Positions 18,001 to 24,000 are shown, numbered from the stretch's first letter. The stretch is DNA of 64,000 nt from Escherichia coli (GCF_024502345.1 NZ_JALDNN010000003.1), one strand, 5' to 3'. Numbers: made by a program.

Positions 18001-21000
18001 CATGACCGTCAGCTACAAAGAGTTTGATTTTACTTTCAAGGCGGCTCATGGCTTCGTAGAGTTTTGCCTCTTTATTGTTCTTCATAAAGCGAAGAATGTA
18101 ATCCGCAATAATATGCTCTGGTGGCGTTTTAATTTCACGGCAGCGATTGCTTGTCATGAGTTTTTCCTCAAGTTTGTGGCAAAATGGCACCATCTCATTT
18201 AAGCCACCCTTTTCCGGTTGTATAATTAATTTGACCTGCTTTACACAGCGCCAGCAAACGGCGATCAAGAATATGCGACGGTTGCGGATTGCTTTCCCCG
18301 GCTGCAATCCGGTGACACTCTGCTTTGATCTCTCCGGCAAATAATGTCGAGAACGGCGTAGGAACTGGGGTAAGAATTTCGTTGAGTGCCCTGTCCAGCG
18401 CCAGATACTTATCCATATTCATGTCCTTGCAGGTAATTGAATGGATGGGATTTAAATTTATTATACTGAATCGAGTTACTAAACTAATATCCTTCAGGAT
18501 GAAGAAAGGAATCATCCACCTTCAGTATGTATTCGACATATAGGACACGTCTCTAAAATTTTTCGCGTTTTCGCGATTTACACCGACAGGCCTACCAGTC
18601 ACCACCTTCGATATGAAGTTGCGTCGCAGAAACAGCCACCATTTCCTGCATTGGCTGGTCATGCTTGTTATGACTACTCCCAAGCAGTAGGCTCACCTTG
18701 CCGTTAGCGGAATAAAACATAGCATCAGGAAAATGCTCTCTGACTTCCCCCAGCAATGTGTGCATCGACTGAGTCAGTCGGTAGAATCGACGTGCGGCAG
18801 TCGGCATTGCATCATCAAGGAGATCTCCGGCGTCGCCGTCCCCGCTGTTTATGAAACTCAGTACCTTATCTTCGTCCATTCGAACCTCTTTTTCAGTCAT
18901 GTCATATATATCCATTGAGATATCTGTCAGCCTGAGCAACGACATCAGGCTGACCTTCGCTCACCCGGTAATAACGATGGCCTGTTCCAATTGTGGCTGG
19001 CGATCCCCCCGCAGCGCTACCGACTCCTGGAGGCGTGCGGAAGGCATCGTCATTGCCTTAAACCCCTCATCCCGCGAACGCACCAGCATCCCCCACGAAT
19101 GGGTTTCACAGACATCGTTCTCGAAATTGGGTTCGGTCGACAGCAGTGATTCCATCTTCGGTTCGATGTGTACCGGCGCAATGTTTTTATAAACAGGGTG
19201 AACACGACACTGTTCAGACGCTTGTGCTCGGTAGCTCCCTTGCGCCAGCAGCACGTCATGGGAAACCAGGTCATAATCTGTATCTTCGACAAAAGTCTTC
19301 AGGGTGTGCGTTATTTTGCCGAATCCTTCGATATTCCAGACGGACACCATCGTAAACTCTTCAAACGCACGGGGACTTTTGACCAAAAATCCATTCAGCG
19401 CCCTACGCCCCTTCAGCATCCCCACCAGGTATTGCTTGTTGGGATAAGGGCGCATCGCAACAAGGTCATTACCAGTCAGGCGTAGCGACAGTTCCGGGAC
19501 GCTTACGGAATCCAGCGTGCAAAGATTTCCCATCGGATGCAGGATTTTTGGTACAAGGTGCAAAAACATCGGTATTCTCCTCGTTTATTAAGCCTTCAAT
19601 TATTGTGCCGTCGCCTGATGTATTTCGAACCAGAAGACAACCGGCTTTTCCGTGACTTCAATTAACCCAAATCGCTCTGCGGTTCTGAAGTTGACGCTGT
19701 ATGCCCTGGCGCGTTCTACCTGGCGGCTTATTTCTTTCCTCATGCCTTCAACACTTAATGCACCTTTAAAGAGATTGCAGGGGGCGCAAGCCGGAAAAAG
19801 ATTTTCGATTGCATGCAGTTCAGGGTGCATGACCTTACCGGTACTTCGAGCCCGGTGTGTCACTCGACTTCCAGCGGGGGCTCTGACCATTTCAAAATCC
19901 CGCCTCACCGGTTCAACATGATCGGCATGCCAGCCTTTTTCCGGCAAAGGACAGCCGCAGTAGGCACACCGACCGCCAAATTTCAAACGCAGTTCGGCTC
20001 GTTGCTCTTTGGATATTTTATTTTTTGGTTTTGAAAATCGCCCATCATCAGATTCAACCTTCGGGAGGAGTTCTGAAAAATTGGGTAATTCGATTACTGC
20101 GCCTTTGTTATTTAGAACTTTCACCGGACCTCCCAACCATATTAAGACGATTTTTTATTTATTTTCCTGAATTAGTTTTCGAATTTTAATCAGGTGTGGT
20201 CGGCTTAATTTGCATAGCTGTTCGGTCGCGGCATCCAGAGTGGGAAATACATGGGCCTCATTAATATCCAGTGTCCAGTATTTCGCTTTACCTTCTCCCA
20301 GATCAGATTCAAAGTAATTCCGCTTTACCCCAATCTGCTTTGGTCTTCCATTAATTCTGACGATTTCATGCCGCTCGTCGAAGATAAAACCCTCTCCGAC
20401 CAACGTCAGGAGGACAAAAGGGCCCTCGGCCTTTTGCGTACCCAGCGAACTCATCTCATTATTCATACGACCTCCCCGGTAATACGCTTAAAGTTGACGA
20501 CCCAGACCCACGGGTTGGCCTGCCAACTGTCCTCGCCGTACGTGTTTTTCCAGAGGCTGCGGAAGCCAAGAAAGTGCTTATCGCCAAGAACACAACATTC
20601 TGTTGGTGCGCCTTCAGCTTTGGCATCTTCCTCGCTGATGGTATTTAACCGCTCTACCCGCAAATCGGTAATTTCCAGTGCAATACGGCTGGCCCAGCGA
20701 GGCATATGGATTGAAGGTGTCCACGCACCTTCGAACTTCATATTTTCGGTACGAGGCTTCCAGTCGGCCTCATCAGGGATCGACCACAGCCCATAATCCC
20801 CCGACCGCTGTTCGCAGCTCGCCCGGTAAATGCGGGCTGCTTCAGTCCTGTCCATCACGATGTTGTCATTCCAGTCCACCGCGCACGCATCTTCATTCCC
20901 GAGCAATGAAAACGCCTCACGGACCGTAATGCGGTCGCCAACTACGCCGTACGGACAAGGCCGAAGCGCCGAGTATGGCTGGGTCCCTGTTGGAAGCCAC

Positions 21001-24000
21001 CAGTCATGCGTGTGCCCGCGATGTCGCGGTGTTTGCGCAGGCCTTATAGACCATTCATCCGAACTATATTGAGGCTTTATAATCCGCCGCGTCTGTGTTT
21101 TCTGATCTGCCAGAATTGCCCGGACCATTTCATCATTAAAAAGCATTCCACGAGTCTTCACTGTGCTGACTCCTTTCACACATGGTTCACACATTGAGAG
21201 GCCTATCCCTCTTTATCAGCCAGGCATACCGAAACTGTCGGTAGTTTTACGGGAACGGGCAACTGCCCCCCTACCTGATAAAGTGGTGTTCTCCCCCAAA
21301 ATTAATCGTATTCCCCATCCACTACCGGCTCAGTCGTAATTTCATATTTCACTCCGCCGGGTACATCCAACGCTTTAGCGACGGACTCACACAGCAATGA
21401 CAAATCATTCAGGGTCATTGGGTATTCAACTTCCAGGCTGTGCAGTGCATTGGCGCTGGCAGCAGCAGCCTTGTCAGCATGACAGGCATTAAAAACGAAA
21501 ACGGTGGTTTTTTCTTGAATAGGCATAGTGCAATCCTCTGAATAATTAGCCCTGTGATCAGGGCGGTTTTTGATTAAATTTAAATGTTCGTTTTCAATAA
21601 TTAGTGAATCTGTTAATCGGGTTGTGACTTATCATTTTCTCCAACCGAAGTGCTGTCGAGAAATGACCATTCTTGTTTGGGGCTTTTATATAATGCACTA
21701 GCCTCAGTACTCATCCACGACTCACAGGCTTTATAAGTCATGCCTTCCTCTCTAACGCGGTCCTTAAAATACGCCCAGGCTTGCAGATCAAGCGGCTGAT
21801 ACTCTTTCAGCGACTGGTCAAGCCTTTCCTTCCAGATTTTCTTCCGATGAGTAAAATGAGGAAAAGCCAGGAATGCATAACTACCTGCAACAAAAAAAAA
21901 GAACAGGAGTCCGCCCCATAGAGAATGTTTGAAAAACACCAGTCCTGGGAAAATCCATGCCACAATGGCAACAAATAAAAGAAGGTGCTCCTTCCCAGTA
22001 GGTTTATTAAAATGCCAGGAAATTGCAATACACTTTAATTTACTAAAGTGATTTTGTTTCTCCTTAATATCGGTCATATATCAGTCCTTACTTATAAAAA
22101 AATGGTTATTATTAGTCTGATGTAAAAGTTACTTTTCAAAACAGTCCCTTTAACGAATTCCGCACCTGCGCTCATTACAACACACACCATTCGGCGCTTT
22201 TTCCGTTAACGGGGCTATTTTCACGTTTTTTGCACGTATGTCTGATTTTGCTGGTGGGCTCACGCCAGCAGGCGGACCATACGTTTCAACAGAGGCCTTA
22301 ACAACGCCGCCGTCCTCTCCCGGCATTCATCCACATGCCGGAACCCCGTCTTTTTCGAAGACTGGGGGCCGGATAACATCCGCAGCTCCCAGATGACTTC
22401 CCGTAAGGTTCCTTCGCGCTCCGGCGAAATACACCCGGCTAATGTCTCCAGAAAGCGTTTTCTTACGGCCCGGTAATACAGACGTTCTTCCGGTTGCTGT
22501 GACGAAATCCGCAGGTTACAGAGGGTCAGGACAGCGTCAAGAGTCCTTGCCTTCAGTTCGTCTCCCGTCCGGGCCAGATGTAGCTGTTGTTCTGTCTCCA
22601 GTTGCGTCGTTATCCACCCCCCCAGAGGGGTTTTGTTGTAGGTGTGCAGTGCCACACAGGCCGCAACACAACACCAGAAGCGCAGTTTCTGCCGCTGCCC
22701 CCGCAGTTTGCGGGCTACGAGCAAGCGATAATCGCTGTCGGTCAGGATCTTGAAACGGCGGCTGGCGAGCAGAGACGGCAGCGGCGTCTGGTCGTTAATG
22801 CCAAGACGTGAATAGGCCTGCCCGCGTTGAGCGAGTCGATGGTACACCGCACCTTTCCCCCGCGAAATTCGGACGGCGCCGTATCTAAGCAGGTACTGTG
22901 CCGCCGCCACAGGGGTAAACTCACCGTCAGACACACGCTGGCGTAATCCGTCATATTCATGCCAGATAATCCAGGATGCCGTGTCTTCATCGACCGTCAG
23001 CTCATCCTCTTCTTCGAATGCAACGATGTTCAGGCCTTCCCCGCTACTCATCAGACTGCGGGAAGCTCGCTCATCCTCCCGACCGTCAAAATAGGCTATT
23101 TCGGATGACGGATCGGACAGCCCGTCAAATGACGTCCCGATACGGCCTTCCGGCAACTTCATCCAGCGTGGTGCTGGCATCGGCGTGCGGGGTACTGGTT
23201 GCATAGCTGGCTCATCGTCGAGAAGATCCAGTGCCCCCCCTTCCCACACCTGGCGGTAAAGTTCAATGGCACGAAATGGGCGCGGGTTAAAGCAATGCAG
23301 TGACCAGAGAAAGTCGATATGCAGCACGTTAGCCTCCTGCACCAGTCGAAACTGCGGCTCCGACATGCGGCGGTTATGCGCGGTATCTTCGATCTCGCCT
23401 GAAAGTAACTTTTCATGCACCGCTGCGGCCCGCTGAGCCTCCACGTAATCGAGGCTGCAACAGATATGGAACAGTCTTTCGGTCAGGGACGACGAGAACA
23501 CATTGGGCTGAAGACGCACATACCCGCCCTCAAACACTTTGCGTCCGATATAATCCCGAAGGCTCCAGTCGTACTGAATTTTGGTCAGGAAACGCTGAAG
23601 GCGGTTGAGACCAGCCTGGTAGCCGTACTTCTCAGGGTCAGTGCGGAGTAAGGTTTCCATCGAGTGATCAATGCCGACGGCGCAGCATAGCGAGCATCCA
23701 TAGCGAGCGCCGCAGGCAGAAGACCGGACAGTGGATTTCTCCGGCGTCCAGATACATTCCCCGGTCGCGTCTTTGTAAAGCGTGGCGAGGCTGAAGTTGT
23801 CCGGCAAAAAGCTTGGCAGCGGAAATCGCGCCAGAGAACCACAGGCCATCAGAAATGACCAGATATCCTGTGCCCGCCACTCTTTCACCGGGTACAGTTC
23901 GCCGCCGTGCTCCGTGAGCGAGACGCTGTCCGCCTGCCCGCCCATTCTTAGGATGTTGTCTGCCCGACGGGCGCTCTCATCATCGCGGGAACCCAGCATC

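Follow-up and report, generated by a model that had tools for sequence, protein, structure and literature searches.

On a 64,000-nucleotide (nt) stretch of Escherichia coli DNA (GCF_024502345.1, NZ_JALDNN010000003.1), the whole of which is referred to here as the window, four tightly packed or overlapping minus-strand genes occupy positions 18961-21194, one of them encoding an HNH nuclease and another a protein with a KTQTRR motif. An earlier note, made from the sequence alone, proposed that the cluster may be a phage-derived nuclease module or a small defence or anti-defence cassette, and the question that the locus raises is whether these genes form a working unit at all. Our analysis indicates that they probably do not. 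The cluster is likely to be a slice of an IncHI1 plasmid backbone array, in which four phage-type accessory genes would have come separately from the phage accessory-gene pool and would act independently, rather than as a dedicated nuclease or defence module. All four open reading frames (ORFs) were found where the note had placed them, and are as follows:

20463..21161, minus strand: PmgT-family protein with a predicted ASCH fold; 232 amino acids (aa) from a GTG at 21161 (longest ORF 20463-21194, 243 aa from an ATG at 21194)
20155..20466, minus strand: ORF3; 103 aa, function unassigned, matching phrog_30913
19600..20124, minus strand: HNH nuclease of the H-N-N type with a predicted Cys4 zinc site; 174 aa from a GTG at 20124 (longest ORF 19600-20136, 178 aa)
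18961..19569, minus strand: DUF6012 protein; 202 aa, predicted beta-sandwich, PF19475

The locus is conserved backbone of IncHI1 (pHCM1/R27-type) plasmids. Positions 18500-21700 of the window are 100.0 % identical to pHCM1 of Salmonella Typhi CT18 (NC_003384, 7903-11103), and matches to this 3.2 kb stretch occur in 270 plasmid records. Identity is ≥99 % in 213 of these, and 266 are predicted to be conjugative, with a MOBH relaxase and the MPF_F type in the records examined. Homologues of every one of the four genes were recovered, at E values of 1e-25 to 1e-77. The phage link drawn in the earlier note was borne out for the whole cluster, as all four proteins have phage relatives, namely PmgT of phage P1 for the ASCH protein (57 % identity), an ‘ea’-region nuclease of P22-like phages for the HNH protein (65 %), prophage proteins for ORF3 (63-68 %) and proteins of Vibrio phages for DUF6012 (30-34 %).

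The distribution of the genes argues for separate histories. Fetched loci (designated here by L numbers) were scanned with the four proteins and their neighbours; they included 80 HNH loci and 80 PmgT-like loci from IMG/VR (160 viral loci in total), in which a partner was sought within 6 kb, and 22 HNH loci from other bacterial genomes (L024-L046 minus one fragment of 725 bp). All four genes were found together only in IncHI1-type loci (L001, L002, L006, L020 and L021), at 91-100 % protein identity. Related loci hold subsets, arranged after a DndC-like gene and a small gene, orf74, both of which are also present upstream of the cluster in the window and are described below. Two Enterobacteriaceae contigs (L022 and L023) carry the order DndC-like, orf74, ORF3 and HNH with no ASCH gene and with a different ORF of 64 aa before HNH, and another two loci (L016 and L017) carry DndC-like, orf74 and DUF6012 without the other three; megablast of the L016 lineage against PLSDB gave no match. 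In a Klebsiella MOBH megaplasmid (L008), an ASCH gene of 29 % identity and an HNH gene of 64 % identity lie 1.5 kb apart with two unrelated genes between them. A PmgT-like gene was seen at one of the 22 other bacterial-genome HNH loci, upstream of the nuclease in Serratia (L029), and at 6 of the 80 viral HNH loci, always upstream and on the same strand. Conversely, HNH lay downstream at 5/80 viral PmgT-like loci, two of these at a distance of 4-6 kb and one being only a 42-residue fragment. Neither ORF3 nor DUF6012 was present at any of the 160 viral loci, and their homologues sit in unrelated contexts.

Natural loss points in the same direction. Window positions 19644-21055, which comprise HNH, ORF3 and most of the ASCH gene, are missing from at least five pHCM1-like plasmids, found in Salmonella and E. 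coli; these deletion variants cover 28 % of the query and are exemplified by NZ_CP029948.1 (L047). In this plasmid, window positions 18560-19444 are likewise unmatched, with ~278 bp of unaligned sequence in their place, and the blocks flanking the 19643/21056 junction overlap by 6 bp, which suggests microhomology. Because related plasmids hold differing subsets, the genes occur solo in phages and natural loss is seen, the data fit four genes gained and lost independently in a variable slot that follows the conserved DndC-like and orf74 genes, and not a co-inherited unit. Comparison of neighbourhoods across phages and plasmids therefore told against the proposed nuclease module. The idea of a defence or anti-defence cassette fared no better, since PADLOC reported no system and pHCM1-like plasmids have dispensed with most of the cluster. 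The only PADLOC matches were weak ones to PtuB/HNH (E 5e-4 to 6e-3), and a Septu or retron-type defence was rejected, as there was neither a PtuA-type ATPase nor a retron reverse transcriptase among the neighbours. NCBIfam and PADLOC together offered nothing useful for the four proteins.

The boundary of the cluster is itself arbitrary. The same tight packing goes on past DUF6012 into a gene 15 nt further on, and a simple scan found no promoter or terminator bounding the four genes, promoter-like and terminator-like counts in the region being at chance level; the four genes are thus a slice of a longer array. An Rfam search gave no match in the four-gene region. The two adjoining context genes are:

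21302..21526, minus strand: orf74; 74 aa, upstream, adjoining the DndC-like gene in all related plasmid lineages
18592..18945, minus strand: 117-aa gene, downstream, matching phrog_27273 (E 1.6e-26)

The 117-aa gene accompanies the four genes in L001, L002 and L020, and is not present in the lineage of 93 % identity (L006/L021). In L006, L016, L021 and L022, homologues of orf74 (51-84 % identity) precede those of the four genes that the locus carries, and orf74 probably belongs to the same transcription unit. A paralogue of orf74, 57 % identical, was observed ~6 kb further down the array (L001 4226-4414, corresponding to window ~15225-15413, minus strand), which indicates an internal duplication.

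Within the cluster, the start of ORF3 overlaps the stop of the ASCH gene by 4 nt (ATGA), and ORF3 is probably translationally coupled to it. Gaps of 30 nt separate ORF3 from HNH and HNH from DUF6012, a Shine-Dalgarno sequence precedes each of the four genes, and their spacing suggests that they are probably co-transcribed. The ASCH gene most likely starts at the GTG at 21161 rather than at the ATG of the longest ORF at 21194: AAGGAG is found 8 nt upstream of this GTG, RefSeq uses the same start, and translation from it gives MKTRGMLF, in keeping with the N-terminal consensus MKERPILF of the family in a 75-sequence alignment. The start taken in the earlier note (MLFNDE..., Met at 21146) falls five codons inside the protein. 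The most likely start of HNH is the GTG at 20124, with the TTG at 20136 as an alternative.

The main interest left in the locus is the family of the KTQTRR protein. The protein matched phrog_874 in PHROGs (E 6.2e-77), and tblastn recovered homologues in 343 phage genomes, of which the best named was P1 PmgT (94 % coverage, E 2e-70). The family is very large, with 40,530 clusters at 50 % identity when searched at E≤1e-3 and 27,722 at E≤1e-10; it is without a Pfam model, and some sources name its members ‘ASCH domain-containing’ or ‘morphogenetic protein’. The GenBank annotation of P1 itself records ~55 % identity between PmgT and an S. Typhi hypothetical protein, and its ‘putative morphogenetic function’ is only a historical label. 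Both proteins belong to phrog_874 and to multi-gene accessory operons of mobile elements, but P1 PmgT, at an annotated length of 309 aa, extends further at the C-terminus and has neither HNH nor DUF6012 beside it. The P1 operon was rejected as a model for the cluster, as pairwise comparison showed no similarity of ORF3 to PmgU or PmgV; nor was ORF3 similar, pairwise, to the gene that follows an ASCH homologue in a Klebsiella prophage. P1 pmgT is non-essential (PMC10695390), and, apart from this non-essentiality screen, our literature search for functional data on PmgT-like ASCH phage proteins brought up a single comparative-genomics study of P1-like phage-plasmids.

The likeness to ASCH proteins noted earlier for the N-terminus stood at the level of the fold and fell at the level of the Pfam family. 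At default thresholds the protein matched nothing in Pfam, NCBIfam or PADLOC, and it did not match Pfam ASCH (PF04266) even at E≤1, while 44 of 75 family members gave sub-threshold matches to this model, the best at E 1.3e-4. An AlphaFold (AF2) model built from the 75-sequence alignment has a PUA-like beta-barrel of the ASCH fold (mean predicted local distance difference test score, pLDDT, 89.9), and on this model the protein is an ASCH member by fold or superfamily, and not of the Pfam family as now defined. No solved structure in the Protein Data Bank (PDB) was matched by sequence, the 75-sequence profile giving a spurious nitrogenase at E 1.7.

The model invites comparison with YqfB of E. 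coli (PDB 1te7 and 9kyf), an ASCH-domain N4-acetylcytidine/N4-acylcytosine amidohydrolase of 103 aa. Alignment with hhalign to YqfB (the sequence used being 100 % identical to 1te7) gave three segments: residues 1-26 fall on YqfB 1-26 with K21, T24 and R26 in register; VVGDRITV falls on KTGDVLRV; and, weakly (E 0.008), residues 161-184 fall on YqfB 52-75, which places E183 on E74 and D179 on H70. The octapeptide DQKTQTRR stands where YqfB-type proteins have G-x-K-T-x-T-x-R. Across the 75 sequences, K21, R25, R26 and G184 are invariant, and T24, D179 and E183 are conserved in ≥90 %. In YqfB, the K21A, T24A and R26A mutants are inactive and E74A lowers activity 100-1000-fold (PMC6972931), and GKTR-type (Thr) and GKER-type (Glu) ASCH proteins have both been found, when tested, to remove N4-acetylcytidine (ac4C) from transfer RNA (tRNA; bioRxiv 10.64898/2026.02.27.708502, preprint). 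Because the Lys-Thr-Arg...Glu constellation of YqfB appears to be kept, and its catalytic set to be intact, the PmgT-family protein is most likely an enzyme, putatively of YqfB type, rather than a passive reader. It would remove an N4-acyl group, or one like it, from cytosine by hydrolysis, acting on a nucleoside, on tRNA or on another nucleic acid. The predicted activity has to be set against clear differences from YqfB, since the window protein, at 232 aa, has ~130 residues of family-specific insertions, including the near-invariant PSIHMPRWASR and CPYG..GDRLWVRE, carries D179 in place of H70 and Asp in place of the motif Gly, and matches no ASCH protein in the PDB at the sequence level. Such insertions, the PSIHMPRWASR loop for example, may set the substrate of the family.

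The HNH nuclease named in the earlier note is present. PF01844 was matched at 22.3-22.4 bits, above the gathering cut-off of 21.4, with only the first half of the model aligned because an insertion of 13-30 residues parts the His strand from the Asn helix; residues 35-177 matched phrog_2118 ‘HNH endonuclease’ (E 2.9e-54), and matches to endonuclease VII families were also seen (phrog_1035, 8e-11; phrog_2914, 6e-8; PF02945, E 0.034). In 26 homologues of 38-100 % identity, drawn from plasmids, prophages and genomes, the motif C..YCG..EKGWHADH ... N..P.C..CNL.K is invariant, as are C53, C56, H66, D68, H69, N108, C113, C116 and N117 (numbered on the 174-aa form). The catalytic His (the general base, in ‘DH’), the structural Asn (N108) and the metal-binding residue (N117) are thus all in place, together with two CxxC pairs (C53/C56 and C113/C116), and the His-Asn-His geometry on which the note had staked its claim is found on alignment with one qualification, that the third position is Asn. 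By its conserved residues the protein has a Cys4-zinc H-N-N nuclease core rather than a His in third position. T4 endonuclease VII has the same H-N-N arrangement, but its similarity to the window protein is only distant, and a sequence search of the PDB gave matches at E~0.5 only.

The closest phage copies come from P22-like phages, where they neighbour Ea22 and EaA in the non-essential ‘ea’ region; in Salmonella phage BIS08P22, for instance, the HNH gene adjoins Ea22. The phage and plasmid proteins share phrog_2118 and the invariant CxxC...HxDH...N...CxxCN, but the plasmid copy has an extra N-terminus of ~36 aa, whereas most prophage copies are ~137 aa and are without it. To our knowledge, no member of this ea-region family has been biochemically characterized. 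Lambda Ea31 was rejected as a named relative, as only the core motif is common to both (E 0.002). The C-terminal domain (YSVNFRTAERFG...VVFWFE) is also conserved, and its ~50 residues (window 19600-19760; YSVNFRTAERFGL...PVVFWFE), strongly conserved in all 25 full-length homologues, matched no known domain; they may be what binds DNA in this small HNH family. The protein would be a zinc-stabilized H-N-N nuclease of the early-left (‘ea’) prophage kind that may cut or nick DNA.

A nuclease of this sort could also be a selfish, free-standing homing-type endonuclease that spread alone into the plasmid and into prophages, its neighbours being bystanders. This would account for its sporadic distribution, its different neighbours at nearly every prophage locus, its presence or absence among related plasmids, and the small prophage core protein (~137 aa) with a highly conserved catalytic core. 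No sequence-specific DNA-binding module of the type common in homing HNH enzymes was matched in Pfam, NCBIfam or PHROGs, however, nor did the conserved C-terminal residues match a domain; the gene sits between genes of accessory arrays and does not interrupt or abut a conserved target gene, and hundreds of IncHI1 plasmids carry it, 99-100 % conserved, as a normal part of their backbone. We regard homing as highly improbable.

Several observations nevertheless weigh against four wholly independent genes, or against the functions that we assign to them. The order PmgT-like then HNH, with both genes on one strand, turns up in distant settings: IncHI1 plasmids, the megaplasmid of Klebsiella, a prophage of Serratia and a minority of the viral contigs. 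In three viral contigs (L121, L183 and L185) the gap between them is 9-18 nt, so some functional link between PmgT and HNH may exist. Some adjacency would be expected because both genes frequent the same prophage accessory slot. Taken singly, the alignments to YqfB are weak (E 0.002-0.008, probability 5-12 %), the correspondence of catalytic residues consists of three collinear weak alignments and a fold match, and the near-invariant Gly of the octapeptide is Asp (D19) in the window protein.

The recurrent gene order could be read as a split modification-dependent nuclease, resembling type IV restriction, in which the ASCH/PUA-like protein senses a modified base and directs the separate HNH protein, thereby protecting the host against phages and rival elements. 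A PUA-superfamily sensor fused to HNH is an established architecture of modification-dependent restriction (PMC6765204; reviewed in PMC12707154), and ASCH-then-HNH in the same orientation is seen in the plasmid, prophage and viral settings just named (6/80 viral HNH loci). The known PUA/EVE-HNH enzymes, such as VcaM4I and TspA15I, join the nuclease and an EVE or SRA-type reader in one fused polypeptide, whereas here there are two genes with a third, ORF3, between them, their co-occurrence is exceptional, and the ASCH protein looks catalytic, with an apparently full catalytic set that a pure reader would not need. Moreover, no ASCH gene was found at 74/80 viral and 21/22 other bacterial HNH loci, and no HNH at 75/80 PmgT-like loci; L022 and L023 keep ORF3-HNH without the ASCH gene; the PmgT family, of >40,000 clusters, is mostly solo in phage early regions; and PADLOC gave no match to the ASCH protein and only weak PtuB-type matches to HNH. 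A split nuclease is accordingly very unlikely. A bolder proposal would make the PmgT family a vast, unrecognized set of phage and plasmid YqfB-type hydrolases that erase N4-acyl cytosine marks on cell entry, whether ac4C in host tRNA, a DNA base or a nucleotide signal, and so retune translation or blind modification- or nucleotide-sensing defence, with the enzyme paired with the adjacent HNH as a two-gene unit in a subset that includes IncHI1. We consider this distinctly unlikely, and continue to prefer four independently acting accessory genes.

The remaining two proteins fit a phage-type origin. ORF3 matched phrog_30913 (E 5.5e-36) and nothing in Pfam, NCBIfam or PADLOC; tblastn against 50,697 phage genomes gave no match despite the PHROG match. 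A search of 5.8 billion proteins returned 37 clusters, in which all organism-named entries are from Enterobacterales except one partial Xanthomonas entry. Its prophage homologues lie in early regions beside Cro, Q, RdgC, Dam, Ead/Ea22 and Lar-type genes, with the other three genes not nearby, and ORF3 would be a small enterobacterial prophage-type protein, its role unassigned. The DUF6012 protein matched PF19475 over residues 1-199 (model positions 1-197 of 200; 109.9 bits against a cut-off of 25, E 1.5e-31), and its structural model is mostly beta (pLDDT 87.1, predicted template modelling score 0.87), with no informative structural match for the beta-sandwich. Its homologues in Vibrio telomere phages, which are linear phage-plasmids (L009 and L010), lie directly after parA-parB, and in an element bearing a type IV secretion system (L018 and L019) DUF6012 is near genes for topoisomerase III and an H-NS-like protein. 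These neighbourhoods hint at a maintenance or establishment role rather than that of a nuclease. The protein, non-enzymatic-looking in its model, would be a binding protein, linked elsewhere to plasmid or phage-plasmid maintenance neighbourhoods.

The array of which the four genes are part comprises ~25 kb of small minus-strand genes. In pHCM1 and in the E. coli plasmid NZ_CP122645 it starts directly past MobH-TraD-...-S49 peptidase-NERD, and in pHCM1 it follows closely on the Tra1 transfer genes and extends in the direction of the replication region. Its contents are DUF905, a DNA-binding protein, hok/sok, IS1-corA, DUF3085, DUF957, the four genes, a DndC-like PAPS-reductase protein of ~800 aa and RelE/ParE. 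The sok antitoxin RNA (RF01794; 10127-10288, minus strand; 89.1 bits against a gathering score of 59), part of a hok/sok post-segregational killing locus, was the only Rfam match in the window and lies within this one-directional array. The DndC-like protein (22260-24689, minus strand) is 809 aa long, with an N-terminal DndC-like/PAPS-reductase PP-loop domain matched by DndC models (E 2e-37) and by TIGR03183 at E 8e-33, but far below the cut-off of the latter; its C-terminal region of ~450 aa gave no match. In all the related plasmid lineages observed, this gene (62-94 % identity) immediately precedes the variable slot, and no DndA, B, D or E partners were found at these loci.

Position and content together raise the possibility that the array is an island of leading-region type, expressed on conjugative entry, which neutralizes the defences of the recipient, perhaps by erasing a signal carried by modified nucleic acid or by breaking down host DNA or RNA effectors. 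Leading regions of conjugative plasmids reportedly show an enrichment of anti-defence genes of one orientation (PMC11541004), and toxin-antitoxin genes, too, have been reported there. The array is a same-strand series of small genes beside the transfer region and includes hok/sok, a RelE/ParE toxin gene and a DndC-like gene; we infer that DUF905, DUF957, DUF3085 and the DndC-like protein are also of establishment type. Phage relatives of all four cluster genes lie in early accessory regions with anti-RecBCD genes, Lar-type restriction-alleviation genes and orphan methyltransferases. Against this, the origin of transfer (oriT) lies outside the window, and our literature search on the polarity of IncHI1 oriT and on leading-region status gave nothing usable. 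The study of leading regions cited above makes no mention of IncHI, HNH, ASCH or DUF6012. In pHCM1, genes for the relaxase and coupling protein stand between the presumed oriT side and the array. Furthermore, the four proteins are without a named anti-defence match in Pfam, NCBIfam, PHROGs or PADLOC, plasmids with the natural deletion are maintained in Salmonella Typhi and E. coli, and the first 7.4 kb of the window is different DNA from that of pHCM1. A dedicated establishment cassette is therefore unlikely, while an anti-defence or establishment role is possible for individual genes within the slice of backbone array that we favour.

Other features of the window lie apart from the four genes. 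Positions 1-7437 are different DNA from that at the corresponding place in pHCM1 and NZ_CP122645, and contain an insertion sequence (IS) transposase (435-1793, minus strand), a DDE transposase (6412-7380, minus strand) and three overlapping plus-strand ORFs of low GC content (0.37-0.42), of 507 aa (2054-3577), 558 aa (3534-5210) and 387 aa (5207-6370). These three ORFs had no Pfam match and no meaningful PADLOC match. The region resembles a cargo operon of three genes flanked by IS elements, and may be a defence system not described before. A first IS1 is present at ~12473-13137, adjoining a corA and ysgD segment (~13291-14449), and a second, inverted IS1 at 28663-29435 splits a gene of 1182 nt that is intact in pHCM1 (L001 16493-17674).

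In summary, the locus has long been known as part of the IncHI1 pHCM1 backbone, where its genes are already annotated (HNH, DUF6012 and hypothetical proteins), and the similarity to P1 PmgT is on record in the annotation of P1. The outcome of our study is chiefly negative, in that the apparent ‘nuclease cassette’ is a chance neighbourhood in a variable accessory array and does not belong in a tally of defence or anti-defence systems. The PmgT-like family, in turn, is among the most widespread of phage and plasmid accessory proteins, and its predicted ASCH fold and apparently complete YqfB-type catalytic set mean that an enzyme assay could assign a function to tens of thousands of proteins now described as ‘hypothetical’ or ‘morphogenetic’.

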